The notes beneath the pieces were generated by a model. It had not been told where the DNA came from. It searched no databases and worked only from the letters and a program-made list of their open reading frames with translations. Below are positions 11,745 to 36,692 of a DNA stretch of 64,000 bases, piece after piece. The stretch's first letter is position 1. Each line of letters starts with the position of its first letter. Both the position numbers and the translations under genes were made by a program. This DNA comes from an uncultured bacterium (GTDB taxonomy: Bacteria; Omnitrophota; Omnitrophia; Omnitrophales; JACQLI01): the NCBI GenBank assembly GCA_964372875.1, contig CAYJTB010000001.1:27860-91859 (forward strand), read 5' to 3'.

Positions 11745-11877
11745 GTCATCCTGAATGAAGCGACACGTCTTCGAGTGCGGCAAAGCCGCGAAGCCGTGAG
11801 GATCTGCCTTGAGATTCTTTCCGCCAAAGGCGGGCCCGCCTCTGGCGGGCGGCCATAGCCCTCGGCCTCAGAATGAC
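11745..11877. repeat. palindromic MITE-like element with imperfect terminal inverted repeats (GTCATCCTGA ... TCAGAATGAC), GC-rich internal hairpins
   Basis: Convergent intergenic region between pdxA(+) and GT2(-); TIRs related to the GTCATTGCGAGG family found in-frame in tsaD/larB/rsmA. Confidence 0.55.
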
Positions 11878-11884
11878 AGTTTGG

Positions 11885-13594
11885 TTAGTAAACCCGGGCG
11901 GCCCTTCTCTTTTTATTCTTTCCGCCTTTAGGCGCGACAAAAAATTCCATGTATTGGCCGAGGGCCAGGCGTGTCTGTGCATCGAGCGCAGGGACAGCAC
12001 CGAAGATGGTGGCAATGGCCGGGACAAGAAGCCATTGAAGAGCCAAGAAAATCTTTTCATAGAAGGGGACTTTCTTGGGGCGTTTGGGCAGGAGATAAAA
12101 ACTCAGGATAATCGAAATCACAAGGCTTGCGATAGCCATGTTGCAGATGACACCTGCCACCCGAGGCGCATTAAAGTGGGCGACGGTCAAATTGAATTCG
12201 TAATTGGGAACAAGGGCAGGCGCCCAGCTTAAGATCATCATGATGGGGGTCCAGGTGGCCCACGAGACATTCATCTCAAGAAGACGCAGCGCTCGTTTAA
12301 ATTTAAGCCAAAACGGGATCTCCTGATGCTTCAGCATGCCCCTCACGAGAATAGGAAAATTTTCGACCCCCCATGCCCAGCGTCTTTTTTGCCGGTAAAT
12401 GGATTGGCAGGTTTTCCACAAGTTCTCACCGATTGCCACATCCATCGACAACGTAACATAAAGAGGCTCCACCCGGTAATCGCCGTTAAAAATAAGAAAG
12501 GCCTTCCAGAAAATGGCAGAATCATCGGAAACCAGATCCACCGGCCAGTAACCTACTTCGACAAGCGCCTGAAAGCTCATGCTATGGCTTGAAAAGGTAA
12601 CCAAGTGGTCCGGGTCAGTGACTTCGATCAGCTGAAAATAAGAAGACCCTGTTTCTAACACTTGGGCAAAAGAGGGGGCCTCCCAGAGATTGTTATGATA
12701 AACGGGGATGGGCTGAAAACTGGTCCGGGTCCGTTTGGGATGAATCAAATAATTATAGGTGAGGCAAGAAAAATATTCGGTACTTACGACCGTATCCGAG
12801 TCAAAACAGGAAACCACAATGTGATCGAGCGGAGTCCCGCGCGCCTCGAAAAATTTCTTGGCCCAACGCGCGGCATACGTGGCGTTGGCGCCTTTGACCG
12901 CCGCCTCTCCTGGGAGCCCATCGGGATGAATACAGTTTTCAAAGTGGAGGAAATCTTTCGCGTATTCTTCTTTTAAGACCTCCGCAATACGGACCGCCTC
13001 TTTTCCTCCGCGTTCCTCAATCGCAAGGACCACCACGATGTGGTTTTTGGGATAATTCGTTTGTCTTAAAGCCTCAAGCGTGGGTTCTAAGACACTCAGA
13101 CCTTCCCAGAGATAGGGAATAATCACGAGATGATAGATATCTTTTGGATTGGGAAAATGGATTTTATCATGTTGGAGGCGTTTCAAAGTTGCGAGATGCC
13201 TTTTTTCTGAAAAATGAATTTTCCAACCAAGCTTGGGATCGCGAATCCTTTTTTGTGTCCTCGTTATGGCGCTCTCTAAATGGAGAAAATCTTGCAGCCG
13301 GTCAAACCATTGAGCGGTTCGTTCAATTTCAAGAAGCACATAAGAGAGCACCAAAAAAATGGTGAAATAAACCAGCCGGAAAAGCCAGTAGAGATCGAAA
13401 AGAATAACCGTCACAACCCCGGCGACCGGGGCCAAGATACATACGAGTGTAAAGGAAATAAGAAGACTCCAGCTAAGCACGGCGGGGAGGATTTCCAGGC
13501 CACGCTCCAACCGCCCTTCGTTTTTACCCAGATTGTGGCGGGAATATTCAAATTTCATGGAGAATCCTTGGAGGCCGCGGAGGCGGAAACCCAA
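11885..13594 (-). CDS. membrane-bound processive family-2 glycosyltransferase (cellulose/glucan synthase-like)
   Basis: N-terminal TM helices, D...DxD (CFDSDT)...SDD and Q(R/Q)xRW motif (YRQKRRWAWG), C-terminal TM bundle. Confidence 0.8.
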   Translation of the reverse strand: MGFRLRGLQGFSMKFEYSRHNLGKNEGRLERGLEILPAVLSWSLLISFTLVCILAPVAGVVTVILFDLYWLFRLVYFTIFLVLSYVLLEIERTAQWFDRLQDFLHLESAITRTQKRIRDPKLGWKIHFSEKRHLATLKRLQHDKIHFPNPKDIYHLVIIPYLWEGLSVLEPTLEALRQTNYPKNHIVVVLAIEERGGKEAVRIAEVLKEEYAKDFLHFENCIHPDGLPGEAAVKGANATYAARWAKKFFEARGTPLDHIVVSCFDSDTVVSTEYFSCLTYNYLIHPKRTRTSFQPIPVYHNNLWEAPSFAQVLETGSSYFQLIEVTDPDHLVTFSSHSMSFQALVEVGYWPVDLVSDDSAIFWKAFLIFNGDYRVEPLYVTLSMDVAIGENLWKTCQSIYRQKRRWAWGVENFPILVRGMLKHQEIPFWLKFKRALRLLEMNVSWATWTPIMMILSWAPALVPNYEFNLTVAHFNAPRVAGVICNMAIASLVISIILSFYLLPKRPKKVPFYEKIFLALQWLLVPAIATIFGAVPALDAQTRLALGQYMEFFVAPKGGKNKKRRAARVY

Positions 13595-15315: not shown

Positions 15316-18300
15316 ATGACCCTACGCGCGAAAAATTTTTATCTACGCACTGTCGCAGCTTTCACCGCAATCATTTTTTGCTGGAATAGCCTTGCTTGGC
15401 CGCTTCCCGAGGTTGCGGTTCCCCAGGCCGGCAAAACTTTCGATCTCATTCCAAAAGAACTCGGAACCGTCGATGAATACGAACTGCCGGACGCTTCACA
15501 TTCCGCACCCTTTGTCATACATATTCAAGATCTCCACGCAGCACCCGAAGCTCAAGAAAAAATCCTGGACATTCTTAAATTTTTACATTCAAAAAAGAAA
15601 CTTCTCGTAGCGGTCGAAGGAGCCGCCGGAACGCTTCATCCTGAGTATTTAGATTTCTTTCCGCAATACCCGCGTGTCACAAACGCACTCGTTCAAGATT
15701 TGGTAAGTGAGAGCATGCTTACAGGGCCGGCGTTATTCGCATGGGAGAGGTATGAGAGTAAGCCGTCATTGCACCCGTCATTGCGAGGACGTAAGTCCGA
15801 AGCAATCTCAAATCCTAGATTGCTTCGTCGGGCCTTTGGCCCTCCTCACAATGACAATAGCGTCCAATTCATAGGCGTCGAGACGCCGCGTCTTTATCGC
15901 GAAAACCTTAAAGCCTATCGCGATTTTTTCCAGGATGAAGAAAAAAATCAGCAGGATTTGAAATCTTTCCAAACCTCATTGGAATCGGCCCAAACGAAGA
16001 TTTTCAATCCTGATTTGAGGAAATTTGTCCAAGAAGTCCAGAGACGTAAAGATGGAAAGTTTCAATCGGGAAAGGCCTCGCCCGATCTTGCGGCTTACAT
16101 TCGCTTTCTCGCGGATTCAAGCCGAGATCATTTGGGAGTTGATCTAAGAGATAAATTCGAACAGATCCGTTTTCCCAATCTAACCCGCATTCTTTTCTTG
16201 ATGGAATTCGAATCAAAAATCACTGCTCACCAGCGCCGGGTTCTGCATTCTGAAATTGAATCCAAAAAACTTTTTGATGAAATCACACTTCTCGAAACAA
16301 GACTGCGGCAAATACTGGTTAAAAAGCCGGAAGAAACAAAACTTCTTGAGATCCTTGATGATTTCAAGTTGCTTGAGAAGTTATTCCATTTGGAACTGAC
16401 TCGCGAGGAATATTACCAAGTCGTCAACAGGGTTTTGGAAATCAATCCGTCGAATTTACATCAGCGTTTGGCAACCATTGCTGAGATTGCTTCGACCTCG
16501 TCTGAAATGTTGTCTCGCAATGACGCCGATTACGAAACTGCTCTGCGTTTTTACCGCTTAGCCATTCGCAGAGACAAAGCCCTTCTTGAAAATGCCTTGC
16601 GAGAGGCAGCTAAAACGGAGAACTCGTCTCAAGAAAAACCACTCATCGTTCTTGTTACCGGCGGTTTTCACACTTCAGGGGTGAGCGAGCTTCTCAAAGA
16701 AAAGAAAATTCCTTACGCCGTCGTCACGCCTGCCTTAGCAAAAACCAAAGCCAATCAAGACCAATATCACAAACTGATGTCCGGCAAAATGTTCGCCAAA
16801 GAAGCCTCAAGCGCTTCGCCCAAGAATAACAATCTGGTGTGGGCGCAGATTCTTACAGCAAGAGATCGGTACCCGAGCCTCAATTCCGACGAGGATCAGC
16901 AAAAAATATTTTCCCACGCGACTGAAAAGTCCGGCGAGTATTTTCGAAAATTCTATCCCCAAATCTCCGAACCCAAACTGCAAGAACTTTTATCTCGCCC
17001 CGCCGGATTCTTTTCGCAAATCTCCCGTTCCGAATTGCAAAGTAGGAGCCAGATTACGAATTCGGCCATCGATGGCCGAATTGGCGGGAAAAGGGTACTG
17101 CCTTCACGTTTTCCGCGCTCGGAAGTGCGGGCGGTAGAACAGCGATTAGAAGTCAGTGGTCAGAAGACAGAAGGCTGGAGTTCAAAGATAGGAAAAATTA
17201 TCAGGAATGGCAGCGATTTTGGACTATCGAGGGTTTTCCAGCGTAGTCAGGCGAAGAATTATCGAATTCCAAGCCGCTTAGAAAAATCTCGAGGTGAAAG
17301 AATAGAAATCTCTTTAAAGGTTTTCATCGATAGCAGATCGTGGTCTCCTGTGACAATGATCGTTGCTTTAGCTGAAAGAGCGCATTCCAGCACGGCATCA
17401 TCGTCCGGGTCACGGCAGGCCTTTACCTTTGTTTTAGGTTTGACTATCAAAGCTTTCATATGGATCAATGAAATCATTTCTTCAAGCATTTCAGGCGTGA
17501 TCCATTTCTTGAGTTTAGGTTTTTCCAGTGAGCGAAGAAAGTCTTCCAGTAAGGCCGGAGATAAAGCCGCAATGAACTTGTCTTCTTCCAGGGATTCCAG
17601 AATCGAACGGCAAACGCCCGGAAAGGCGAGTCCGCTCACCAGCACATTCACATCAAGAACGACCCGACGCATACCGTTCCTGCCGGGCTTGCTTGACCAG
17701 ATTCAGAAGCTCTTTTCGGCTGAGAGGGTGTTTCTTTCGGCTTTTATCAACTTTGCGGGTCAGAGAACGGAAGCGTTCTCCCCAGGTCTTATGTTCAAGA
17801 CGACGGATCAGGGTAATGCGGTCACGGGATTTCAATTGATTGATCATGCGCTCAATTTGTTGAATGTCTACTTCCACGGCAATCTTAGGCATAGGATTTT
17901 ATCCTCCTCTTCGAATCAGTATAATTTATCGGCCTTGGCGGATCAAAATCAAAACATTTCTTCCGTTAAGCCTTCTAAGCAAAGTTCGACAGAACCGAGC
18001 CGAAGGGCCGCTTCCGGCCCCGAGAGCCGTCAGTCTCCGATCCTAAGCGTCGATAGACCCGGAGGGGCCCGTGGGGAGGTGCGGGCAAAAGAACAGAGGT
18101 CAGAAGTCAGAGAGCAGAGGATAGAGGTCATAAGTCAGAGATCAGAAGGAAAAATTACTTCGAGTGGCGGCGATTTTGGTAGCGTTCGATCAGGTACATC
18201 ACGCCCCAGGCAAGAAATATCAAAACCAAAACAAGAGACACGGTTATCACGTTTTATTTACCCCTTTTCCGAATCTCTTGGGCAAGCCATCCAAGAAATA

Positions 18301-27300: not shown

Positions 27301-28719
27301 ATAAAAAATCATTTTCTGACCGCGCTTCATCATTTCATTTGGGAACACAGCGACTTTGAAGATGCGAAGAATTTAGCCAGAGAACTCGGTAACTTGAGCC
27401 TAATCAGTTCTTTGTTGGGTGAGCCCCTCAGTAAAAGACAGGCCGCTTTTTATAAGCGCGCACTTTTGAGCTCTGACCGCACGCAGCAGAAGATCGCGCT
27501 TGGCTTCTTCGAGACTTTCCCTGATCTTGAAAAAATGGACTGGAAAGAGGAAGTCGTTGGTAAACTTAAAGAAATCGTAATGGATGAATCCGAAGATTCT
27601 GAATTTAGAAAATATGCCTTTGAAGCGTTGACAAACAATATTCTTCTTATAGAGCCAGCCTTTTTGGCGCCTTATTTTAAAGAGCCGCGCAGCCAACGGT
27701 TTCGAATCATTTCTTCGGATAAAAAAGGCGCTCGGATTTTATTTTCGGTTCTTCAGAAGAAATTTGGGTCGCCTTTAAAGGACCCGCCCCTTTTTAAAAA
27801 AAGTTCCGAGTCCATCATTTTATCAGGAGAATTTACGACAGGTCTGAGAAATGCTGCCATGTTGATCCGATTTGTAAGGCAGGCCTACGGCCGGGAGATA
27901 TCCTTTGATGAGTCCCGCGGCTTGCTTAAAGAGATGAAAAAGAAACAAGACAGATCCCGGCGTTCCGAAATACGGAGTGAAAGCTTGGATTCGACGTGGG
28001 AGTTGAGGGAGGATGCGAACAAAGGAAAGCTTGCGGAACTTGGAAAACAATTTGCGCCGATGATTGAGAGTCTTTGGAAACGCTCCGAGGTCAGGCACAG
28101 GCTTGCGACGGACGGATTTTTGAATCTTTCAAAGCTGATTGAAATTCCCAAAGCCGAAGCGGCTGAACCTGCGATTGTAGCTGCGCTTTTGATCCGTGCA
28201 GAACAATCCCAAACCGGAACGCCGGCTTTGGACAAACATTTGCAAGTGTGGCAGTCGCGCATGGGAATCAGTTCGGTTGCTAAAGAAAATGAAGTCGTAA
28301 TCCTCTTAGAAGGTGCGGCGTTTAAACTCGGACTCTTGGCTGCGATCGACGGAATTAGCCCGGCAGCTCCGAAGATCGGCGTTGTGGCGCCCAAGGCTTA
28401 CCATTCTTTAGTGGAAGAAGTCAGAAGCGGTCTTAGAACCGGGCAAGAACTGATCGAAGGGGAGAAGCTTCCCGAAATTTTAAATCAAATTGCTCAGATG
28501 AAACAGAAGCCAAGCCGCTTAACGATTTGGGCTTCGAAGGAAGACTCGTTCTTAACAGCAGCGTTCATCAAACGTTTTCTTAAAGATCCAAACCTGAATG
28601 TAGAAGTAAAGACCGTGACGCAGCGCGATCTTGACCGCGCCAACGCGTCTCACCCCGGCTTTGCGGAACGTATCAAGAACTTCCTCGCCGCCGTCAAATC
28701 CCTCAGCATTTCCGCTTAA
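15316..28719 (+). CDS. giant secreted multi-domain protein (4467 aa): signal peptide, helical N-region, 7-blade WD40-like beta-propeller, three ~70-aa WN..HP repeats, Pol-beta-like nucleotidyltransferase-like motif, HEAT/ARM-like helical C-terminus; contains recurrent RSEVR motifs and in-frame GC-rich hairpin repeats
   Basis: Single uninterrupted 13.4-kb ORF; N-terminus MTLRAKNFYLRTVAAFTAIIFCWNSLAWP; WD40-like blades ~18.55-19.5 kb; GSLGVLGSAVRDKSDLNLMVV at ~25.49 kb; RBS aggaaag upstream. Confidence 0.8.
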   Translation: MTLRAKNFYLRTVAAFTAIIFCWNSLAWPLPEVAVPQAGKTFDLIPKELGTVDEYELPDASHSAPFVIHIQDLHAAPEAQEKILDILKFLHSKKKLLVAVEGAAGTLHPEYLDFFPQYPRVTNALVQDLVSESMLTGPALFAWERYESKPSLHPSLRGRKSEAISNPRLLRRAFGPPHNDNSVQFIGVETPRLYRENLKAYRDFFQDEEKNQQDLKSFQTSLESAQTKIFNPDLRKFVQEVQRRKDGKFQSGKASPDLAAYIRFLADSSRDHLGVDLRDKFEQIRFPNLTRILFLMEFESKITAHQRRVLHSEIESKKLFDEITLLETRLRQILVKKPEETKLLEILDDFKLLEKLFHLELTREEYYQVVNRVLEINPSNLHQRLATIAEIASTSSEMLSRNDADYETALRFYRLAIRRDKALLENALREAAKTENSSQEKPLIVLVTGGFHTSGVSELLKEKKIPYAVVTPALAKTKANQDQYHKLMSGKMFAKEASSASPKNNNLVWAQILTARDRYPSLNSDEDQQKIFSHATEKSGEYFRKFYPQISEPKLQELLSRPAGFFSQISRSELQSRSQITNSAIDGRIGGKRVLPSRFPRSEVRAVEQRLEVSGQKTEGWSSKIGKIIRNGSDFGLSRVFQRSQAKNYRIPSRLEKSRGERIEISLKVFIDSRSWSPVTMIVALAERAHSSTASSSGSRQAFTFVLGLTIKAFIWINEIISSSISGVIHFLSLGFSSERRKSSSKAGDKAAMNLSSSRDSRIERQTPGKASPLTSTFTSRTTRRIPFLPGLLDQIQKLFSAERVFLSAFINFAGQRTEAFSPGLMFKTTDQGNAVTGFQLIDHALNLLNVYFHGNLRHRILSSSSNQYNLSALADQNQNISSVKPSKQSSTEPSRRAASGPESRQSPILSVDRPGGARGEVRAKEQRSEVREQRIEVISQRSEGKITSSGGDFGSVRSGTSRPRQEISKPKQETRLSRFIYPFSESLGQAIQEIRIMMATIIERTALAFNEVFQMFSLTTRAANTRLTALMIPSANKFRLLDGKRVFISMLQAPQPNTGLILSQILFLEYEISRRSEVREYISDWTVSTLETKQPVLAAAFSTDGKILAAGARNNVHLTNGDLRKWSVEFRAHRNEIAKLISFQRGNRNFFATASRIGSISLWNSNGGLIRRLEQLNPEDFQPVLGLSVSKNGDWLAATDMDVMKIYDLTGMSSPKTIPITDQSRNHFVQFSPDGTSIASTYYGEIRIEDIKTGKLRANLHHEASLKKSMDTSALAFSKGDDVAAASTDGKIRIWRWKGERQPQVLDFLSPAREASHLIFSPNGKRLAASTADQIEIWKLNGKVWRHEETIYPHLDAVTEILFSPDAKRFMAAGIWHGSGRVRIWSKETPARAEVRTDGIPTTWFRIFNRLDNLNREVWKQKDLDIIDLTNQLEKKLISLFGSQLLYGIWTWNTSVREVRFGLRSGPLSFELTANPHQEIPEREIKRGYTVTMNAMLTSAAESQHAKKWGDSEPEERGETLLEIPIAEIDRSQPVIYFGSFYFDTDKEKKETIIKQEILFLPGEERNYQIYIWHNNALEKTTLEKEGGRTYAVWRTPEAEPSLSFQYVALHDAQGKDLGEISRLILKAGNSETYRNNLQFLYGPIWRDETSSFSHGSRTSVKPSVFEDLISAAPGKRIAALLGLAIEYQYVPEGQVFSRMLLTELEKLEGLPYGRIAALREIAEMSPEEAHERFKDPYDQPSAIPAVMTLVASLAPRLLERMKNWDQEFYEELKGVLQKPDLKTLFEEGEVKFYEADHLWAASDNRSFFPGVVAFSRSKDRQIIVPIYFGNEPKDEDGKVWFKILDATSLGIENSNAATYQVYDHMLGEFYKTLHSGEKLYREGWSIGIPVVPGKLDRAGFIQKGRHVQFLEMRRTQSLTTATRIGLPENLVKTQGILTDLLREMSKLEIYFFISKTGATDRRMVPVDNVYEFFSSYAGKKGEHWNEIVSEPLQLTVSSPGFKRQTLRHALRMMQEALQLTYSFPGTLKGNDPHLSFYHDKLIEETQLLKTSDQTGKWAHVEFEIASSHFEMPDHWDQPAENSLRQRIQALREALEIPFVLMLKAPSGAKDPYHIEPVGNLHQRLPYFVLKDDFLKNPHDPRFPYFSKGAQLSFGLEAPMDSARLEQVRNILVASLEGRMSAATLKRAIEVTMHQWQREDSFFSESRSEARRVPRTLAVHPVRLAPGTPLYPDRSGPGVAVQSHWNSARSEVRTEKSERLTRSNAGELLKPRRYLKNKIYGIGRITAVEGKFGGKDPQGSVEVAFLNKHGFEETKEFSTWSLFQLPEQNPEEAFFSVTRQEIEDFKNQKRQGQAAYKEEIDKKRIAQREGRQWMEAQSPTFSLYDSPFSARAGRPLAADYRKLMQGIQDRAQGEYHLGSASIVERKILFEMLGTRLIPKTNQSETTLRINLGRRKKEFAEKLKTILDETGGLSARAVSEAEEKIMSPKDKSRALSSEWLKFRDPVTGKFATEKDIKRWIQNAIPIVERILEYEVKLLKLEKQIQIHPRPLARSEVRAAESSPTKKVAFFNLRTADDSSIVLPQRMSYLPVEQRLPDYSAWRIRVGRESGNLHAFLRDVLGPRWHWNVKGETKAYFLYKSLPKKFKQFIGKRKPPTGFDMEALGLLVVNRSDIFYIPMEETVNESVVTVLDKNDRDAINEFISHHAMIQTVPQNIRIFPPVRYESVKFGLGEDPVSSPKPGSIEVVYHPRLMVNDLGKADKEIIFETSFDLTQLRPRKKITAELEGRFYQELKSRLRNTWQIRIGNRTVEMPRAKDLPAKVQDVEEILLPGNNRKTASLHFNDAVSFYLDGILMRSNVPVPKDIHAWIFWKTRIRFNDQEISVETTEGNNVLTYRTDETGEHLRVNGEPTDNSVLQNMIRQMGSAFSILAFQMARDPEQTDYLRESGKETIDDEFDQWLGRSEVREEGQPAQNGNGHAIQKKQRGRGFRTKEEALQALAERQAKGLSSDPKSLQRHLAEGGNPTLLTFIYRWNQKHPEEPIEMKLLPTRTHKYESKGEIIEALEKRRLEKGESANYRMQLRLHIEEGGDRTLYQAVLRWNHDHPEDLINLPLDPHVAHGQLGKYQTKQDGLNTLSERKKQGLGNSTSDLRQTKSDGGDWPLLVFIRHWNKKHPKDRIALENADQNFNRLSPVAVWHSQTQDFKTTDQKRTEWWRALQEEADHEAGKRLVESFIPSVNEIAQRLSGGRDSHYEADLIQNGNMIVLETIYPERKEDQWNPSRGVSMTEFVETRLKKEMRHRTLQEIRSSGRFSIDEPYRFSKGREKEWQVPSYDAQPQEVRINNLADERDKQSGLPVILFEEKHQIAREIGKWLIKKGFLKQVKQEGIQNLAVSMIGSLGVLGSAVRDKSDLNLMVVTDANESQAEALAEKLAQWIGGRYHEPQDSEPIRISVGKEGDYEQAIADGNGFISLLQKHKVGTDPIKGIASVEVIGIPDEDNSFSEDSLTRQKTRAAFHLAFQDPRLAEQAINGILVLENAKGAAERLAQKLPSDQENLFGYYEKFLAKQAANLRKLQESSIDSKARAEVHPNPTDSGTPQSSPDQARAEVRSSLPEQRAEKKLETRKLEIGAGISGLSGRVETSNGRVFSGSDRLPIKSTRSPQKSEWQGQPSFSLPPLRSLPQKSSPNKSISRVLLERQAAISGRVLGKALLPELLLIGPKSHAETTLPASPSGPLSGIYFSQNKIYSNINSELSDFSRSDGSTSSPSVLSKAEGRVERAEVHPNPTDSGTPPHSRPTGVSTEVSLAAPPGAPPSSPERARAEVRASVEEIIRKQMLSGDLKAFEKNFESYDREKAFELLNSISKIAKEISERIRKGEEELMVAANNGQKMQEIIDAAKILENFPNDKQIHGVHLSAIINLQEIFNLTPKALPRYRNLLEAIVKHASKKEQPHQAAAEIIESFEGEQHADSQQDQFQRNEALEFLTLDLDEKVFKETVIKNHFLTALHHFIWEHSDFEDAKNLARELGNLSLISSLLGEPLSKRQAAFYKRALLSSDRTQQKIALGFFETFPDLEKMDWKEEVVGKLKEIVMDESEDSEFRKYAFEALTNNILLIEPAFLAPYFKEPRSQRFRIISSDKKGARILFSVLQKKFGSPLKDPPLFKKSSESIILSGEFTTGLRNAAMLIRFVRQAYGREISFDESRGLLKEMKKKQDRSRRSEIRSESLDSTWELREDANKGKLAELGKQFAPMIESLWKRSEVRHRLATDGFLNLSKLIEIPKAEAAEPAIVAALLIRAEQSQTGTPALDKHLQVWQSRMGISSVAKENEVVILLEGAAFKLGLLAAIDGISPAAPKIGVVAPKAYHSLVEEVRSGLRTGQELIEGEKLPEILNQIAQMKQKPSRLTIWASKEDSFLTAAFIKRFLKDPNLNVEVKTVTQRDLDRANASHPGFAERIKNFLAAVKSLSISA
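17259..17672 (-). CDS. PIN-domain toxin (TIGR00305-like), encoded antisense inside the giant ORF
   Basis: MRRVVLDVNVLVSGL...CRDPDDDAVLECALSAKATIIVTGDHDLL: conserved acidic residues of the PIN fold. Confidence 0.75.
   Translation of the reverse strand: MRRVVLDVNVLVSGLAFPGVCRSILESLEEDKFIAALSPALLEDFLRSLEKPKLKKWITPEMLEEMISLIHMKALIVKPKTKVKACRDPDDDAVLECALSAKATIIVTGDHDLLSMKTFKEISILSPRDFSKRLGIR
17653..17892 (-). CDS. putative antitoxin partner of the nested PIN toxin
   Basis: 79-aa basic/helical protein overlapping the PIN start by 20 nt (classic TA arrangement); no recognisable fold by eye. Confidence 0.5.
   Translation of the reverse strand: MPKIAVEVDIQQIERMINQLKSRDRITLIRRLEHKTWGERFRSLTRKVDKSRKKHPLSRKELLNLVKQARQERYASGRS
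18258..18461 (-). CDS. small (67 aa) 2-TM membrane protein, antisense inside giant ORF; paralog of 26324..26533
   Basis: MKTLFPSKRRNLF...VSLVLAALVV...SLKAKAVLSIIVAIMILISW; AT-rich promoter-like region immediately upstream on the minus strand (TTGACT at 18505-18510). Confidence 0.5.
   Translation of the reverse strand: MKTLFPSKRRNLFADGIMRAVSLVLAALVVSENIWKTSLKAKAVLSIIVAIMILISWMACPRDSEKG
21972..22113 (+). repeat. in-frame GC-rich hairpin cluster inside giant ORF (paralogous to 26062-26130 and 26630-26790)
   Basis: gtgcacccg-loop-cgggtactcc flanks shared with the 26-kb copies; stems cccggtgc/gcaccggg, acccggacc/ggtccgggt, cattggaac...gttccaatg; ends in RSEVR codons. Confidence 0.5.
26062..26130 (+). 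repeat. in-frame structured repeat unit (40-nt perfect repeat + second hairpin) inside giant ORF
   Basis: gccgaggtgcacccgaatccgaccgattcgggtactcctc identical at 26062-26101 and 26644-26683; hairpin cccgaatc/gattcggg; second hairpin cctcgcc-cgatca-ggcgagg. Confidence 0.6.
26324..26533 (-). CDS. small (69 aa) 2-TM membrane protein, antisense inside giant ORF; paralog of 18258..18461
   Basis: GTG start; MKSIFLTTARRDWL...VILVLLAGVLGG...SLKWRLVVLGGLVICFYLGLIF; shares MK(S/T)(I/L)F, K.SLK...VL...V.I pattern with the other copy; AT-rich region with TTGATA upstream on minus strand. Confidence 0.5.
   Translation of the reverse strand: MKSIFLTTARRDWLAKLFQHVILVLLAGVLGGELFLKLSLKWRLVVLGGLVICFYLGLIFAASSSKEED
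26630..26790 (+). repeat. in-frame structured repeat unit, second copy, with four hairpins
   Basis: Same 40-nt repeat; additional stems actcacgcc/ggcgtgagt, cctggcggc/gccgccagg, cctcgcc-tgaacg-ggcgagg (loop differs from copy 1 while stem is kept). Confidence 0.6.
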
Positions 28720-29397: not shown

Positions 29398-30312
29398 TTG
29401 AGTTCCACGCAAATCGCCCTTCTTAAAAAATACGGTCTTGAAGTCCGTGGATTTCGCGGCCAGCATCTTTTGGTCGATCCCAACATTCAACGAAAGATCG
29501 TGGAGTTAGTCGCTCCCAAACCAGGTGAGTGGATCGTTGAGATCGGGCCGGGCCTGGGTGCGCTCACGACTGAGATTTTGGCGGACGGCGCGTCGGTCCT
29601 TGCGATTGAAAAAGACAAACGCTTCTGCGAGATCCTGGAAGGGGAGTTCGGCATCGATTACAAAGGAAAACTCCTGATCGAAAATGCGGATGTTCTCAAG
29701 ACGGATTTAAAAAAATTACTCAAATCGTCGTTACGAGCCCCAAAGAGGCGAAGCAACCTAAGCACGAAGACTGCTTCGGCGCCGCCTCGCAATGACCGGA
29801 TCAAAGTCATCTCGAACCTTCCTTACTATATAACTTCACCTGTGCTTTTCTGGCTGATCTCCAATCGTGCATCTGTGGAAAAAGCGGTTTTGATGATGCA
29901 GGCTGAAGTCGCGGACCGTTTGCTCGCCCAGCCGGGAGATAAAGATTATAGCCGGCTTACCTTGGGAGTCCGGTATTACGCCGAAGTCCACCGTGCTTTT
30001 GAAGTTTCCCGCAATTGTTTTACTCCGAGGCCCGATGTCGATTCAACGGTCGTGACGATCGATTTTCACCCGCCGTCCGCATTCCCAAAAGGAATCGACG
30101 AGGCATTTCTTTTCCATCTCATTCAAGTAGCCTTCGGTGCCCGGCGAAAAACCCTACTCAATCGTCTTACGCAAGATTCAAAAGTAGGTCGCCCTCGTTC
30201 CCAGCTCTTAGAAATTTTTCACAAGCTCGGCATCCCCGAAATGGCCCGCGCTGAAGAGCTCCTCCTCAAAGACTTCATCTCATTGACCGAATTTCTTCAA
30301 CCTAAACATTAA
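29398..30312 (+). CDS. rsmA: 16S rRNA (adenine1518/1519-N6)-dimethyltransferase RsmA/KsgA, carrying an in-frame palindromic-element insertion
   Basis: TTG start; GQHLLVDPNI, VVEIGPGLGALT, NLPY motif; ~23-aa extra loop (...RRSNLSTKTASAPPRND) coincides with element 29727-29796. Confidence 0.88.
   Translation: MSSTQIALLKKYGLEVRGFRGQHLLVDPNIQRKIVELVAPKPGEWIVEIGPGLGALTTEILADGASVLAIEKDKRFCEILEGEFGIDYKGKLLIENADVLKTDLKKLLKSSLRAPKRRSNLSTKTASAPPRNDRIKVISNLPYYITSPVLFWLISNRASVEKAVLMMQAEVADRLLAQPGDKDYSRLTLGVRYYAEVHRAFEVSRNCFTPRPDVDSTVVTIDFHPPSAFPKGIDEAFLFHLIQVAFGARRKTLLNRLTQDSKVGRPRSQLLEIFHKLGIPEMARAEELLLKDFISLTEFLQPKH
29727..29796. repeat. palindromic element (degenerate 5-prime TIR gtcgttacgag ... cctcgcaatgac) inside rsmA
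   Basis: 3-prime end identical to the tsaD and larB copies (CCTCGCAATGAC); internal gaagcaa motif shared. Confidence 0.55.
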
Positions 30313-30331: not shown

Positions 30332-30420
30332 CACGAGTCTCGTCGTCACTCGTAACGCCCCTGCGAGACAGTCCCCTTCTATATTGTTTCTTTTCAAGGA
30401 TCGGGGCAAGTCCCCGTGGG
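30332..30420 (+). repeat. intergenic repeat B1 (~90 nt), inverted copy at 32753-32845
   Basis: cacgagtctcgtcgtcactcgtaacgcccctgcgagacagtccccttctatattgtttcttttcaaggatcggggcaagtccccgtggg; ~90% identical to the reverse complement of 32753-32845. Confidence 0.7.
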
Positions 30421-30547
30421 ACGTCCTCGTTCGTGCGTCCGGCCTCGTTCTCCGCCAAAACGCGTGGCGGATCCCTGCCCACTCGGCCTTCCGAACGCGC
30501 CTCGACTGGTCCTTCCGCTGATCGTAACCTAGCAGAATCCCCAAGCC

Positions 30548-30609
30548 TGAGACGGTCCCCTTCATTAATTTTTATTTTCAAGGATCGGGACAGCCCCCTT
30601 GTGGGGCGG
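30548..30609 (+). repeat. intergenic repeat B2 (shorter copy of the B family)
   Basis: gagacggtccccttcattaatttttattttcaaggatcgggacagcccccttgtggggcgg. Confidence 0.65.
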
Positions 30610-30630
30610 CGTAGCGGCCGTTACGGAAAA

Positions 30631-30657
30631 ATCCGGAAAAGATTTTTCCGTAGGCCC
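30631..30657. repeat. conserved hairpin CGGAAAAATC-loop-GATTTTTCCG (second copy at 32712-32738)
   Basis: 10-bp perfect stem in both copies with different loops. Confidence 0.6.
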
Positions 30658-30772
30658 ACGAGTGAGGGCGACTCCTTGTCCGTTTCTATCTTGTCGCCTG
30701 AACGTTCGGCGAAGGCTGTGGGGATTCTCCCTGCGTTGACAATAAGAATTGCGGCATGCTACGATCCTTGGC

Positions 30773-31057
30773 ATGTCGTTTGAAATCGAGCAAATTGCGG
30801 AACTTGCAAGACTCAGTCTGAAGCCTGAAGAAAAGGCCAAGTTAAAGAAGGATCTGGAATCGATCCTCGCCTATATGGCGCAGTTGAAAGCCGTTCCGAC
30901 GGACGATGTAGAGCCCACAAGTCACGTCCTTAATCTGGAAAATGTCTTCCGGGAAGATGAAATTAAGCCTTCCGATATCCGCGAAGATGTCCTCAAGTAT
31001 GCCCCTCACCGAGAAGGAAGTTTCTTCAAGGTCCCCAAGGTCATTGATCAGGAATAA
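30773..31057 (+). CDS. gatC: aspartyl/glutamyl-tRNA amidotransferase subunit C
   Basis: MSFEIEQIAELARLSLKPEEKAKL...; ORF track starts at 30749 but GatC family begins at this Met. Confidence 0.88.
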   Translation: MSFEIEQIAELARLSLKPEEKAKLKKDLESILAYMAQLKAVPTDDVEPTSHVLNLENVFREDEIKPSDIREDVLKYAPHREGSFFKVPKVIDQE

Positions 31058-32475
31058 TGTCTGATTTCAGACTCACTTTAAAAGAAGCGATCGGTTTCTC
31101 TCAAAAAAACGGGGCGGAGCCGCTTATCCAAGGTCTTTCTAAGCGGGTCCAAGACGTAGATGGAAAAATAAATGCCTATATCCGTTTTGACCCGTCAAAA
31201 ATCGAGCGGGCCAAAAATCAGGGGCTGCTCCACGGCGTTCCTATTTCTATCAAAGACAATATTTGTACGCGTGGGTGGGAGACAACATGCGCGTCAAAAA
31301 TTTTGTACGGATATACCCCTCCTTATGACGCGGCGGTGATCGAAAAATTGCGGGCTGCGGGCGCCACAATTTTTGGTAAATGCAACATGGATGAATTTGC
31401 TTTTGGCTCCTCCAATGAAACCTCGACTTTCGGTCCCGTCCACAATCCTTGGGATTTGGAAAGGGTGCCGGGCGGTTCAAGCGGCGGATCGGCGGCAAGC
31501 GTTGCGGCGGATGAGGCCTTTGCAGCGCTTGGATCTGACACCGGCGGATCGATCAGGCTTCCTGCCGCATTCTGCGGAGTTGTAGGATTCAAACCCACGT
31601 ATGGAAGAGTCTCGCGTTACGGCCTCGTCGCCTTTGGTTCAAGCTTTGACCAGATCGGTCCCATTACAAAAACCGTTGAAGACTCGGCTATCTTAATGAA
31701 TATTTTGGCGGGTTACGATGAACGCGATTCAACCTCTGCAAATATTCCGGTTCCTGATTACATCCAAGCATTAAAGCGGGGAGTTAAAGACCTAAAGATC
31801 GGAATGCCTAAAGAATTTTTTGTCAAAGGTATGGACCCGGAGATTGAAAAGGCAGTGCGCAAAGCGGGGAAAGTTTATGAAAAGATGGGTGCAACGATCA
31901 AAGAAGTAAGTCTGCCGCACACGGAGCATTCGGTCGCTGCCTATTACATTGTAGCCGTAGCTGAGGCAAGTTCCAATCTCGGCCGTTATGACGGCGTCGA
32001 ATATGGACTCCGGGCAAGTGAGAATAATTTGCGTGATATGTATTTTGAGACGCGCGATCAAGGGTTTGGCCAGGAATCGAAGCGGCGAATTCTTTTGGGC
32101 ACGTTTGTACTCTCAGCCGGTTATTACGATGCATATTATAGGAAAGGCCAAAAGGTAAGGACTTTGATCCGGCAAGATTATGAGAAGGCGTTTAAAGAAA
32201 TCGACGTTCTCTTGACTCCTGTTTCGCCGTCGCCTCCTTTTAAACTAGGCGAAAAATTAACCGATCCGCTTACGATGTATCTTTCAGATATTTTTACGAT
32301 CTCTGTGAATCTGGCAGGAGTCCCGGCCATCGTCCTTCCGTGCGGTTTCACAAAATCCAATCTTCCGATTGGAATGCAGCTTATCGCGCCGGCTTTTGCC
32401 GAAGAGACTCTCTTTCAAGCTGCATCTGGCTACGAACAGGAAACCCAATGGTTCAAACGCAAACCGAAAATTTAA
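31057..32475 (+). CDS. gatA: aspartyl/glutamyl-tRNA amidotransferase subunit A (amidase signature)
   Basis: 472 aa; amidase signature GGSSGGSAASVAA, catalytic Ser-cisSer-Lys context. Confidence 0.93.
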   Translation: MSDFRLTLKEAIGFSQKNGAEPLIQGLSKRVQDVDGKINAYIRFDPSKIERAKNQGLLHGVPISIKDNICTRGWETTCASKILYGYTPPYDAAVIEKLRAAGATIFGKCNMDEFAFGSSNETSTFGPVHNPWDLERVPGGSSGGSAASVAADEAFAALGSDTGGSIRLPAAFCGVVGFKPTYGRVSRYGLVAFGSSFDQIGPITKTVEDSAILMNILAGYDERDSTSANIPVPDYIQALKRGVKDLKIGMPKEFFVKGMDPEIEKAVRKAGKVYEKMGATIKEVSLPHTEHSVAAYYIVAVAEASSNLGRYDGVEYGLRASENNLRDMYFETRDQGFGQESKRRILLGTFVLSAGYYDAYYRKGQKVRTLIRQDYEKAFKEIDVLLTPVSPSPPFKLGEKLTDPLTMYLSDIFTISVNLAGVPAIVLPCGFTKSNLPIGMQLIAPAFAEETLFQAASGYEQETQWFKRKPKI

Positions 32476-32494
32476 TGCCAAAGAGCAGAATCTC

Positions 32495-32550
32495 CGCCCC
32501 ACAAGGGGGCTGTCCCGATCCTTCAAAAGAAACATTAATGAAGGGGACCG
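32495..32550 (-). repeat. intergenic repeat B3 (reverse orientation)
   Basis: ccgccccacaagggggctgtcccgatccttcaaaagaaacattaatgaaggggaccg = reverse complement of B2-type unit. Confidence 0.65.
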
Positions 32551-32711
32551 CCTGCGTCGGACGTTCGGCCGGCGCATGAACGGGTGAGGAAATCAAAAGG
32601 TGATCATTCCAAATGAACGTGAACAGATAAGGAAACAGTAATAATCTGGGAAGATGCACACAGGTATGAAGATCGAAACGGACAAGGTGCCGGCCTCACT
32701 CGACGGGCCTT

Positions 32712-32738
32712 CGGAAAAATCTATTCCGGATTTTTCCG
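32712..32738. repeat. second copy of CGGAAAAATC/GATTTTTCCG hairpin
   Basis: cggaaaaatctattccggatttttccg. Confidence 0.6.
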
Positions 32739-32752
32739 AGACGGCCCAACGC

Positions 32753-32845
32753 CGCCCCACAAGGGGGCTGTCCCGATCCTTGAAAAGAAACAATATAGAA
32801 GGGGACTGTCTCGCAGGGACGTTGCGAGTGGCGACGAGACTTGTG
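32753..32845 (-). repeat. intergenic repeat B4, inverted copy of B1; B1 and B4 bracket gatC-gatA
   Basis: ccgccccacaagggggctgtcccgatccttgaaaagaaacaatatagaaggggactgtctcgcagggacgttgcgagtggcgacgagacttgtg. Confidence 0.7.
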
Positions 32846-34297: not shown

Positions 34298-35362
34298 ATG
34301 TTAACCCTCGGCATCGAGACCTCCTGCGATGAAACCTCCTGCGCGGTTTTAAAAAATGGCGATGAGATTCTTTCCAATATTGTTTCCTCGAGCCTTGCCC
34401 AACACACACCCTTTGGGGGAGTCGTTCCCGAGATTGCGTCGCGTCACTGTCTGGAACAAATTGATTTAGTTTTTGAAACCGCGCTCGAAAAGGCCGGCGT
34501 TTCAAAAAAAGATTTGGATTTAGTCGCGGTAACCCAAGGCCCCGGGCTGGTGGGTTCGCTTCTGGTCGGACTTTCTTTTGCCAAGGCGTTGGCCTATCAG
34601 CTTAAAATCCCTTTGATTGGGGTCAATCATTTAGAAGGACATCTTGCAGCGAATTTTATTGGAAAGCCGCTTCCGAAATCTTTCATTGGTTTGATTGTCT
34701 CGGGCGGCCACACAGAACTTACTTATCACCGGAACGGCGCCATAAAAATTCTTGGATCTACGGTGGACGACGCTGTGGGTGAGGCGTATGACAAGTCAGC
34801 GAAACTTCTCGGCCTGGGTTATCCCGGCGGTCCGGTCATGGATAAGTTGGCGCAAAAGGGAAATCCCAAGGCCTTCCGGTTCACGCGGCCCAAGCAAAAA
34901 GGACGATTTGATTTTAGTTTCAGCGGAATTAAAACAGCGGTATCTGTCATTGTGAGGGCGCAAAGCGCCCGAAGCAATCTGACGCCAGTGGCGTCAGGGC
35001 TTCGTCCCGCCCCCGTTGGGGGCAGTCCTCGCAATGACCATCAGTTTGTCAACGATCTCTGCGCCAGTTTTCAGGAGACGGTAGTGCGCTGGCTTGTGGA
35101 AAAAACCATCGCCGCCTGCAGGAATAAAAAAGTAAGCGATGTGGTTGTGGGCGGGGGAGTAAGCGCCAATACAAGACTCCGTGAACTTCTTCCCCAAGAA
35201 GCCAAGCTTTATCATATCAATGTTTGGTTTCCTCCGTTTTCGCTGACCATTGATAATGCGGCAATGATCGCAAGGCGAGGCTTTGAACTTTACCAGAAAG
35301 GAAAACGAACGGATTTCAAAATTTCAGCCCGTCCCAGTTTTCCCATAGGAGAGGCAAAATGA
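34298..35362 (+). CDS. tsaD: tRNA N6-adenosine threonylcarbamoyltransferase TsaD (Kae1/Gcp), with in-frame 31-codon palindromic-element insertion
   Basis: MLTLGIETSCDETS, HxxGH metal site (NHLEGHL), GVSAN...; ORF track start 34259 is an upstream in-frame Met; element 34946-35038 adds VIVRAQSARSNLTPVASGLRPAPVGGSPRND. Confidence 0.88.
   Translation: MLTLGIETSCDETSCAVLKNGDEILSNIVSSSLAQHTPFGGVVPEIASRHCLEQIDLVFETALEKAGVSKKDLDLVAVTQGPGLVGSLLVGLSFAKALAYQLKIPLIGVNHLEGHLAANFIGKPLPKSFIGLIVSGGHTELTYHRNGAIKILGSTVDDAVGEAYDKSAKLLGLGYPGGPVMDKLAQKGNPKAFRFTRPKQKGRFDFSFSGIKTAVSVIVRAQSARSNLTPVASGLRPAPVGGSPRNDHQFVNDLCASFQETVVRWLVEKTIAACRNKKVSDVVVGGGVSANTRLRELLPQEAKLYHINVWFPPFSLTIDNAAMIARRGFELYQKGKRTDFKISARPSFPIGEAK
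34946..35038. repeat. palindromic element, 93 nt (multiple of 3), TIR GTCATTGTGAGG / CCTCGCAATGAC, inside tsaD
   Basis: Terminal 12-nt inverted repeats; nested internal stems cgaagc/gcttcg and ctgacgcc/ggcgtcag. Confidence 0.7.
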
Positions 35363-35808
35363 ATTGGTTCAGTTCCCAAGACACCCTTATGATCACAAGA
35401 CTTTTTCTTGCGACATTTCTTGCGAGCTTTATTGGGATCGAGCGGGAAATCCACGGTAAAGTAGCCGGATTTAGAACACATGCCCTAGTATCGCTGGGCT
35501 CCGCCCTCATCATGCTTGTTTCCATTGATCTTTCGGAGGCGTATCGTGGAGTGGTGGATGTGGACCCTTCAAGGATTGCGGCACAAGTCGTAAGTGGTAT
35601 CGGATTTTTGGGAGCAGGCGCTATTATCCGGTTTCGAACGGGGATCACCGGGCTCACGACAGCGGCCAGTCTGTGGGTCGCGGCCGGGGTGGGTCTTGCC
35701 TGCGGCGCCGGATTTTTCAAACCGGCTTTCGTTGCCACACTCTTCGCCCTTTTGGTTTTAGCCCTTTTTGGGACCTTAGGCAGGTGGCTTGGTTGGAAAG
35801 ACGTATGA
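35359..35808 (+). CDS. MgtC/SapB family membrane protein
   Basis: 149 aa; RLFLATFLASFIGIEREIHGK...GIGFLGAGAI...LWVAAGVGLACG typical MgtC N-domain. Confidence 0.8.
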   Translation: MNWFSSQDTLMITRLFLATFLASFIGIEREIHGKVAGFRTHALVSLGSALIMLVSIDLSEAYRGVVDVDPSRIAAQVVSGIGFLGAGAIIRFRTGITGLTTAASLWVAAGVGLACGAGFFKPAFVATLFALLVLALFGTLGRWLGWKDV

Positions 35809-36692
35809 CACTCACACAAGAAACTATCGGAAAAATTTTAAAAGAGGTCGAATCGCGCAAAATTTCCAGCCAGAAGGCGTTTGGGAAATTACAAAATCTC
35901 GCTTACGAAACTTTTTCATTCGCCAGGATGGATCATCACCGTACTCTGCGCAAAGGTTTTCCGGAGGCGATCTACACACCCGGTAAAACGATTCCTCAAC
36001 TGGAAAAAATTTTCCGTTCGATCCAAAAATCAGGACAAAAGCTGATCGCGACGCGCTTGGAGGAGAGTGTTTATAAAACACTCAGGAAAAAATTCCCCGG
36101 TCTTCGCTATTCAAAGGAAGCAAGGATTGGGTATTTCTCATCCGTCATTGCGAGAAGCACCAACGGTGCGACGAAGCAATCCCGACCAGAGATTGCTTCG
36201 TCCCTTCCTACGGAAGGGACGGTTAAAGGAATCCTCTTTAGCCCTGACGCCAGTGGCAACAGGACTTCGGCTTTGTCTGGAACGCCGCCTCGCAATGACA
36301 GAGAGAAATCCATTGCGATTCTCACCGCTGGCACGAGCGATCTTCCGGTTGCGGAAGAGGCGGCCATTACGCTTGAATTAATAGGAAAGAAAGTTGTCCG
36401 GATTTATGACTGCGGTGTCGCGGGCCTGCACCGGCTTTTGGATCAAGTCTCAACATTACAAGAAGTCAAAGCCGTGATCTGCGTTGCGGGAATGGAAGGC
36501 GCACTTCCGAGTGTGGTCGCTGGCTTGATCAGTAAACCTATCATTGCAGTTCCGACCAGTGTGGGTTACGGCGCAAGCTTCAAAGGTCTTGCGGCGCTTC
36601 TTACCATGCTCAATTCCTGCGCTCAAGGTGTAGCCTGCGTCAATATTGATAACGGATTCGGCGCCGCCTGCTTTGCCGCGTCTATTGCCTAA
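35805..36692 (+). CDS. larB: LarB (PurE-like nickel-pincer nucleotide biosynthesis carboxylase/hydrolase), with in-frame 52-codon palindromic-element insertion
   Basis: ATGA overlap with mgtC-like stop; C-terminal PurE-like domain ILTAGTSDLPVAEE...VICVAGMEGALPSVVAG...AVPTSVGYG; element 36144-36299 inserted in N-domain. Confidence 0.75.
   Translation: MTLTQETIGKILKEVESRKISSQKAFGKLQNLAYETFSFARMDHHRTLRKGFPEAIYTPGKTIPQLEKIFRSIQKSGQKLIATRLEESVYKTLRKKFPGLRYSKEARIGYFSSVIARSTNGATKQSRPEIASSLPTEGTVKGILFSPDASGNRTSALSGTPPRNDREKSIAILTAGTSDLPVAEEAAITLELIGKKVVRIYDCGVAGLHRLLDQVSTLQEVKAVICVAGMEGALPSVVAGLISKPIIAVPTSVGYGASFKGLAALLTMLNSCAQGVACVNIDNGFGAACFAASIA
36144..36299. repeat. palindromic element, 156 nt (multiple of 3), TIR GTCATTGCGAG / CTCGCAATGAC, inside larB
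   Basis: Perfect 11-12-nt terminal inverted repeats; internal 12-bp stem gacgaagcaatc/gattgcttcgtc; shares gacgccagtggc block with the tsaD copy. Confidence 0.7.

Follow-up and report, generated by a model that had tools for sequence, protein, structure and literature searches.

In this work, we describe palindromic elements that lie in frame within protein-coding genes of an uncultured bacterium of the phylum Omnitrophota, whose members are ultra-small uncultured bacteria with compact genomes. The elements were found in a 64,000-nt stretch of the contig CAYJTB010000001.1 (hereafter the window, numbered from its first letter), where they occupy positions within the genes tsaD, larB and rsmA and within a giant open reading frame (ORF). 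We conclude that they are very probably copies of a palindromic DNA repeat of the kind known as repetitive extragenic palindromes (REPs). The elements recur above chance, are palindromic, belong to a family in which the two halves of the stem covary, are present in some lineages and absent from others, and sit in a loop or at a site that homologous proteins lack.

The tsaD gene (34298–35362, plus strand; 354 aa starting with MLTLGIETS) was recognised by its matches to Pfam TsaD (E 9e-89) and to TsaD in the PDB (E 4e-83), and its element occupies 34946–35038 on the plus strand. These 93 nt encode 31 aa (the peptide VIVRAQSARSNLTPVASGLRPAPVGGSPRND) and are bounded by GTCATTGTGAGG...CCTCGCAATGAC, the two arms being complementary at 11 of 12 positions; a left unit (34946–34979) is followed by the spacer hairpin CTGACGCCAGTGGCGTCAG (34979–34997) and a right unit (approximately 34998–35038). 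The larB gene (35805–36692, plus strand; 295 aa; PDB LarB 7mj0, E 4e-58; Pfam AIRC) bears a composite element of 156 nt and 52 aa (36144–36299, plus strand), bounded by GTCATTGCGAG...CTCGCAATGAC with arms complementary at 11 of 11 positions. It consists of a left unit (36144–36181), an inner right unit devoid of its head (approximately 36189–36222) and a second right half (36244–36299). The termini of both elements can be written as GTCATTG(T/C)GAG(G) and (C)CTCGCAATGAC. Both lengths are divisible by 3 and both ORFs run uninterrupted through the inserts; the coordinates, lengths and open frames reported in the initial annotation of this DNA were thus reproduced.

The same annotation had pointed to a block common to the two elements, and this was confirmed: the second right half of the larB element has the GACGCCAGTGGC block in common with the tsaD copy, the stretches 34979–35004 and 36244–36269 being 88% identical (family D11). 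This derived block of 26 nt (CTGACGCCAGTGGC...CTTCG) was not detected in the 200 fetched loci and, within that scope, is confined to the tsaD and larB copies, of which the former lies 1.2 kb upstream of the latter. Because they have this block in common, the tsaD and larB copies appear to be recent relatives, copied within this genome. A single metagenome match to the derived block and the right end lay in a methyltransferase motif, had no left arm, and was judged to be due to chance.

A third copy had been assigned to rsmA/ksgA (29398–30312, plus strand; 304 aa; Pfam RrnaAD, E 4e-50; PDB KsgA, E 1e-44), and it is indeed there as a decayed element of 70 nt (29727–29796, plus strand; peptide SSLRAPKRRSNLSTKTASAPPRND), with the right end intact (CCTCGCAATGAC) and the left end degenerate (GTCGTTACGAG). 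The three named copies are real, but two further ones had been missed, both in the giant ORF (15316–28719, plus strand; 4467 aa; Pfam WD40 propeller at aa 1087–1375). One is a complete doublet of 79 nt (15777–15855, plus strand; peptide SLRGRKSEAISNPRLLRRAFGPPHND), just before which a partial duplicate of the left end (CGTCATTGC) is located at 15764–15772. The other is a decayed short doublet or half element (16476–16524, plus strand; ..EIASTSSEMLSRND), the intact right unit of which ends in GACG. All five elements, which we refer to as the ATTGC family after the lower stem described below, are within ORFs, four unrelated ones, and are read through. The peptides inserted into TsaD, LarB and RsmA all end in PRND, as had been noted, and in all five copies the right end reads ..(P/S)(R/H)ND.

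The initial annotation had also raised the question of whether the terminal motif occurs beyond tsaD and larB. In the window, the 11-mer (at most one mismatch) was found 8 times against 0.99 expected, and none of 100 shuffles reached 8. An nhmmer search of the window with a profile of the repeat unit gave nine unit matches, all within the five elements and none elsewhere, including 34944–34980 and 34999–35038 in tsaD, 36142–36183, 36189–36206 and 36265–36301 in larB, both units of the 15777–15855 doublet, and 16483–16525 in the giant ORF (E 1.6e-5). When folded as single-stranded DNA, the tsaD element gave −33.7 kcal/mol (z −7.0 vs. shuffles), the larB element −40 kcal/mol (z −6.3) and the 15777–15855 doublet −23.2 kcal/mol (z −7.0); the decayed copies do not stand out in folding (z −1.3 for rsmA and −1.9 for 16476–16524). 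A search of the window for generic units (GTC, AT-stem and its complement) gave 10 against a shuffle mean of 6.1 and, the ATTGC family apart, did not surpass the shuffles.

The repeat can be described as a hairpin unit, (C/T)GTC–ATTGC–GAG–variable segment–GAA–GCAAT–C, in which an unpaired CGTC/TGTC tag is followed by a 5-bp lower stem (ATTGC/GCAAT), an internal loop (GAG/GAA), a GC-rich upper stem-loop and a short tail. An element is made of two such units that are inverted relative to each other, separated by a short spacer and with their tags facing outwards, and it spans 70–156 nt; in all full window copies the tags are outside, and the inner stem halves are 9–10 nt apart where the inner arms are intact. 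The properties of the unit were studied on 172 matches (132 distinct) of GTCATTGCGAG..GAAGCAATC, taken among the matches listed from IMG/VR viral contigs, to which the following unit counts refer. The base preceding GTC was T in 114 units and C in 49 (163/172 together), and the nine unit heads in the window comprise four CGTC, three TGTC and two GGTC. The ATTGC/GCAAT lower stem was part of the minimum-energy fold of 104/132 distinct units (DNA parameters), and GTC was unpaired in folded units. The sequence of the variable segment differs from copy to copy, yet this segment folds more stably than shuffled versions of itself (mean z −1.7) and forms an upper stem of 2–8 bp with a loop of 3–4 nt or larger. 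An exact inverted partner within 90 nt was present in 42/172 units. The triplets most often following GAAGCAATC were TCA, CAG, CCC, TCG and TCC; if the pattern's final C is included, the tail is CCA in the Novosphingobium plasmid pNL2 and CTC, CTG or CCC in the window. By inspection, the consensus unit has no stop codon in five of its six reading frames, the sixth being closed by the TGA of CAATGAC, and the ..RND ending corresponds to ..AATGAC read in one of the two stop-free right-end frames.

Support for the hairpin comes from a sister family in which the lower stem is ATCCT/AGGAT. The matched combinations ATTGC..GCAAT and ATCCT..AGGAT are abundant, each being found in at least 120 viral stretches (IMG/VR), and the mismatched combinations of the stem halves occur in only 3 and 8 stretches of the whole viral collection, which indicates covariation of the lower-stem halves from one family to the other. 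A 14-base generic pattern, GTCATNNNGAGN{8,38}GAANNNATC, was of no help in viral contigs, where chance matches dominate (complementary triplet in 1/113 among the matches listed). The sister family is represented in the window by a doublet with tags outside (CGTCATCCTGAA ... CTCAGAATGAC; 11745–11877, no strand assigned), also written CGTCATCCTGA...TCAGAATGAC, which folds at −32.9 kcal/mol (z −3.3). It is intergenic, between the convergent ORFs 10672–11721 (plus strand) and 11885–13594 (minus strand). This is the classical position of a REP, and the same kind of element is consequently present outside genes here as well.

Structure alignments with T. maritima TsaD, LarB 7mj0 and B. subtilis KsgA showed that these proteins lack the inserts. 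In the AlphaFold model of the window TsaD, built from a 55-sequence alignment, the mean predicted local distance difference test (pLDDT) score was 88; the insert (residues 217–247) lengthens the helix 209–225, passes into a loop with pLDDT below 50 at 232–244, and is followed by the helix 246–277. The modelling suggested by the initial annotation thus places the TsaD insert in a predicted low-confidence loop between two helices. In the alignment with 7mj0, the LarB insert takes the place of a short linker that connects the N-terminal part with the PurE-like domain; the RsmA insert directly precedes the NLPYY motif, where B. subtilis KsgA 6ifs shows a gap of 17 residues. The three hosts had been introduced as essential genes; tsaD is normally essential, and larB and rsmA are not normally so, such that the term was overstated for the latter two.

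The closest genomes are Candidatus Omnitrophota metagenome-assembled genomes with TsaD identity of at most 75% (loci L121–L134). Alignment with these orthologues bore out the view that the inserts are lineage-specific. The LarB insert is absent in 5/5 relatives (L121, L122, L125, L129 and L132), including the closest one, L121, where the tsaD–larB synteny is kept. The RsmA insert is absent in L123, L130, L132 and L134, and only L121 has a remnant, CGTCATTGCGGG..., at the same site. Because of this remnant, with which the degenerate arm of the window copy fits, the rsmA insertion is taken to be older and decaying. Both the rsmA copy and the tsaD copy of L121 have decayed by internal deletion.

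The TsaD loop is polymorphic to a much greater extent. As judged by nucleotide comparison, the same loop contains a shortened ATTGCGAG doublet in L121, a complete one in L128 whose frame is different (HCEE...LAMT), a canonical CGTC-1 doublet in L125, an ATCCT doublet in L129 and a half copy in L124, a GTAG REP in L123 and a CCCCTCACCC...GGGTGAGGGG element in L122, and it is empty in L126 and L132–L134. The loop has therefore received the ATTGC family plus at least four other palindromic repeat families, and GTAG-type peptides (VGAG...APT) also fill it in some Omnitrophota relatives. When 117 TsaD orthologues were sorted heuristically by peptide signatures, 56 had no insert, 20 had the ATTGC family and about 25 had other recognisable families. 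In 79/117 orthologues, the nearest neighbour outside the loop differed in loop state (the neighbour pairs inspected are 80–93% identical outside the loop), and parsimony on a neighbour-joining tree required about 50 changes. Relatives read the element in all three stop-free frames, giving VIAR, SLRG or HCEE at the left end and PRND or LAMT at the right end. Another repeat observed in the TsaD loop has the ends CCCCCTCACCC...GGGTGAGGGGG and encodes PLTPTLSP...GERVRVRG (orthologues P0007, P0012, P0027 and P0031; DNA at L122 637–834); it is read in two frames in different orthologues.

Beyond Omnitrophota, the unit is widespread and is present in plasmids of alphaproteobacteria and cyanobacteria. 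The ATTGC family occurs as an intergenic dimer with tags outside in pNL2 of Novosphingobium aromaticivorans, where the tail is CCA, and in a plasmid of the cyanobacterium Aulosira; plasmids of Methylosinus, Methylocystis and Legionella gave further matches. In viral contigs, the ATTGCGAG hairpin unit is common (L001–L120 are IMG/VR contigs; e.g., L002 7062–7093, L004 and L022), sometimes with several units per contig, and it is often located directly upstream of the ribosome-binding site of apparent structural genes. The recurrent ORF families within 600 nt of the units (120 viral loci) seem to encode phage structural proteins. Phages may carry the repeats between phyla. In the literature, the 11-mers matched only unrelated primer sequences.

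We propose that the repeats multiply as selfish or neutral DNA, both inside a genome and from one genome to another. With a coding share of at least 92%, most insertions in this genome would land in genes, and the copies that survive would be those preserving the frame, lacking a stop codon and placed where a loop or linker tolerates them. Such copies would be translated as disordered surface loops rich in Arg, Ser and Pro, and would be close to neutral. The distribution of the elements suggests that they are mobile. It is possible, if less than probable, that they are mobilised by a structure-specific HUH/Y1-type enzyme that recognises the hairpin in single-stranded DNA, similar to the REP-associated tyrosine transposases (RAYTs); an enzyme of this kind is favoured because of the conserved tag and internal loop, the free upper stem and the absence of target duplications. 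The ORFs located between inverted ends 300–2500 nt apart in the fetched loci include none that is transposase-like. The 2013 survey of CGTC-tagged REPs reported no mobilising gene either (Di Nocera, De Gregorio and Rocco 2013, BMC Genomics 14:522; PMC3733652), and we found no later paper that settles which enzyme moves CGTC-type repeats.

Several points weigh against the elements being translated copies of a mobile REP-like repeat. The translation of the inserts is a prediction. Neither a transposase nor an HUH gene was seen next to units or between inverted ends, the Pfam scan of the window having covered a minor share of its ORFs. The location of five of five copies in ORFs is not significant, because ORFs of at least 150 aa cover at least 92% of the window (0.92^5 = 0.66). 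A precise empty site could not be reconstructed in the relatives examined because the surrounding loops have diverged. Moreover, the published CGTC stem is continuous (8–9 bp, with a loop of 4–5 nt; PMC3733652), whereas here a 5-bp stem is combined with a GAG/GAA internal loop and a hypervariable upper stem; bulged variants may have escaped that survey, as its authors themselves remark. Finally, the ATTGCGAG peptides are not among the intragenic cases of CGTC-1 to CGTC-4 in the available part of the survey, nor were they retrieved by a term search of its supplements (PMC3733652), the comparison of these four families with the window unit being one of descriptions and peptides.

As for other explanations, inverted termini of 11–12 nt and a size of 70–156 nt would also suit a classical MITE (a miniature transposable element with inverted repeats), that is, a deletion derivative of an insertion sequence (IS) with true terminal inverted repeats, moved in trans by a DDE transposase with target-site duplications. 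The initial annotation had spoken of terminal inverted repeats, and the ends are indeed inverted, but each is the outer portion of a hairpin unit, two of which lie in inverted orientation, and they are not repeats of the MITE type. We consider a MITE origin very unlikely because target duplications are absent (the four full copies are bordered by CT/CA, CC/AG, CC/AA and TC/CG, none of which is a direct repeat), because the presumed terminal repeat belongs to a unit whose two halves covary and which has no exact inverted partner within 90 nt in 130/172 matches, and because a related IS was noted neither in the window nor, for the fetched loci, between inverted ends. The CGTC/TGTC tag, too, is typical of REPs. 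The elements might instead have been retained by the host for a DNA or RNA function, such as mRNA stabilisation, translational pausing or protein binding. REPs have documented roles in other bacteria (PMC3733652), the viral units are often situated just upstream of ribosome-binding sites, as described above, and the GAG/GAA internal loop is conserved. Against this, the host genes are unrelated, copies decay (rsmA, L121), and the TsaD loop flips among the empty state, the ATTGC family and at least four other families even between neighbours. Furthermore, Rfam at the gathering threshold gave a single match in the window, a tRNA, and no family for the elements, and no promoter- or terminator-like site was detected within the tsaD or larB elements. 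A function selected by the host is, therefore, highly improbable.

The uniform ..(P/S)(R/H)ND ending of all five window copies could, in turn, suggest ordinary lineage-specific protein loops or a selected ..PRND peptide, with the palindromy being incidental. However, relatives carry the same DNA in other frames (HCEE...LAMT in L128, SLRG.. in others), copies are found in non-coding DNA, and the conservation is at the nucleotide level and has inverted symmetry. Frame-independence and the non-coding copies appear to refute a selected peptide, and we see next to no chance for this explanation; the initial proposal that the inserts are repeated palindromic DNA and not an ordinary protein segment, made for only three of the copies, was upheld with four unrelated ORFs. 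Excision at the RNA or protein level, as with an intron or intein, was also considered and rejected as a general explanation, since taking out exactly 79 or 70 nt (the end-to-end lengths of the giant-ORF doublet and the rsmA copy) would shift the frame, which is preserved when these copies are translated. This argument is weak; the element boundaries are uncertain by a base or two.

The repeatedly colonised TsaD loop is the most notable part of the finding. We are aware of no previous account in which five repeat families have refilled a single loop of an essential enzyme. A bolder proposition, which we regard as doubtful, is that the helix–helix loop of Omnitrophota TsaD genuinely acts as a hot spot of insertion and serves as a landing pad for at least five palindromic families (two or three CGTC-type families, one GTAG REP and one CCCCTCACCC-ended element) that has been colonised, replaced and lost dozens of times, and that the GAG/GAA loop with the free upper stem is the recognition site of the mobilising enzyme. 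If true, this would imply targeting, for instance of repeat into repeat or to a structure-prone site at the replication fork, and not mere survival in the sole tolerant site, and it would make palindromic repeats a main source of loop evolution in Omnitrophota.

More generally, with the REP-like repeats described here, Omnitrophota join Rickettsia, Opitutus and a few others as hosts of in-frame palindromic repeats. These repeats provide a natural series for studying how proteins tolerate or recycle inserted DNA, as the loop of one essential enzyme is empty, filled or refilled in close relatives. The bulged CGTC variant is common in phage and plasmid DNA and may be of use in identifying the enzyme by which CGTC-type repeats are moved. 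From the practical point of view, such inserts inflate and distort gene calls, alignments and families of 'hypothetical proteins' in metagenome databases.

Several features of the window were observed in passing. In the giant ORF, the peptide motif R(S/A)EV(R/H) recurs about 14 times; it is conserved at the protein and not at the DNA level, because the codons encoding it differ; the motifs seem to divide protein modules and could be processing or linker sites. A direct repeat in the same ORF (26062–26135 and 26644–26780, about 582–645 nt apart, 90–94% DNA identity) encodes AEVHPNPTDSGTP...ARAEVR. At 17116–18145, a PIN_3 toxin gene (Pfam, E 8e-18) and an overlapping upstream ORF of 79 aa are antisense within the giant ORF; the minus-strand ORFs 17259–17672 and 17653–17892 are laid out like a toxin–antitoxin pair, and the plus-strand frame remains open for about 1 kb across this stretch. 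It lies between direct repeats (17115–17177 and 18069–18145) that encode R(S/G)EVRA.EQR.EV, and it may be either a cassette nested in a giant gene or a junction where two ORFs have been fused by an improbably open antisense frame.

Between rsmA and tsaD, inverted repeats of 45–144 nt at 30332–30692 and 32494–32845 occupy the spacers flanking ORFs at 30749–32475. Their arms are 76–94% complementary and their core is ..GGTCCCCTTC..TTTTCAAGGATCGGGAC(A)GCCCCCTTGTGGGGCGG..; they have no Rfam match and form a family distinct from the CGTC elements. The gene following larB is larC (Pfam Ni_insertion). The larC-like ORF 36699–37649 matches Ni_insertion only from profile position 122/375 (residues 67–301), and its N-terminal part appears to be short or divergent.

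The Rickettsia palindromic elements (RPEs), to which the initial annotation had likened the inserts, reportedly go back to Ogata et al. (Science, 2000) and later work. RPE-1 is longer, about 100–150 nt. As in the window, RPEs are palindromic repeats found in frame in housekeeping genes, read through and situated in loops. The RPEs and the window elements have in common the CGTC tag, the ATT start and ..RND ends, as judged from peptides in the available part of the source. They differ in that the RPE-6/CGTC-1 stem is ATTCCCGC and the stem here is ATTGC-GAG, and in that Rickettsia belongs to another phylum and has another lifestyle. Even the choice of host can coincide, since the available part of the 2013 survey lists the dimethyladenosine transferase RC1022 of R. 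conorii, i.e., RsmA, among intragenic hosts (PMC3733652). The initial annotation regarded this phenomenon as rare and classically described for Rickettsia; the Rickettsia case holds, but confinement to it does not, as the same available part also reports in-frame REP/RPE insertions in Opitutus terrae, Sphingomonas, Rhodopseudomonas and others (PMC3733652).

In Opitutus terrae (Verrucomicrobia, a member of the Planctomycetes–Verrucomicrobia–Chlamydiae (PVC) group), dozens of GTAG REPs are present in frame in housekeeping genes as singletons and dimers (PMC3733652), much as here; their tag and family are different, and repeated colonisation of one loop by several families is not reported in the available portion of that account. 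REPINs (REP doublets forming hairpins) and bacterial interspersed mosaic elements (BIMEs), which are associated with RAYT (Bertels and Rainey 2011; Nunvar 2010; Ton-Hoang 2012), likewise are doublets of inverted hairpin units foldable into one long hairpin, lack a target duplication, and form sequence populations within a genome. In contrast to the window elements, whose tag is CGTC/TGTC and for which no RAYT was seen between or beside the units, they bear the tag GTAG, come with a cognate RAYT gene and lie almost exclusively outside genes. The Coxiella repeats QMITE1/2 are also small and sometimes lie in frame in ORFs or lengthen them (PMC5896051), but they are described as MITEs and are mostly found at gene ends and in hypothetical ORFs.

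The closest resemblance is to the CGTC-tagged REPs. These have an unpaired CGTC tag (with the variants TGTC and CCTC), a stem starting with A-T and a short CCA tail, form mainly head-head (HH) dimers, i.e., dimers with the tags outside, and have no associated transposase (PMC3733652). In several species, intragenic dimers encode 20–30 residues (PMC3733652), and the peptides given in the available part of the survey are VIPAKAGI, SFPRKRES and ...DSRFRGND. In the window and its relatives, too, the CGTC tag is often TGTC, the stem starts with A-T and T-A pairs (ATTGC/GCAAT; ATCCT/AGGAT in the sister family), and the units mostly form dimers with tags outside and a spacer. The tail is CCA in the Novosphingobium copy and varies in the window and in viral units; intragenic dimers encode 20–30 residues with right-end peptides ..RND or ..MT, and no transposase was seen among the ORFs between inverted ends or near the units, part of the ORFs in these 64 kb of genome having been scanned. 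The host differs, as Omnitrophota is outside the five phyla reported (PMC3733652), and we found no paper linking in-frame REP/RPE insertions to this phylum. In-frame palindromic elements are, thus, already known as a kind, and the Omnitrophota host and the repeat family are unreported as far as we could find in the accessible portions of the literature. Since the CGTC super-family includes RPE-6 (CGTC-1) and RPE-4 (CGTC-4) of R. conorii (PMC3733652), the common architecture, with its CGTC/TGTC tag and tag-outside dimers, supports the label 'RPE-like' and allows it to be sharpened: the window elements are best described as putative REP doublets of the CGTC type.

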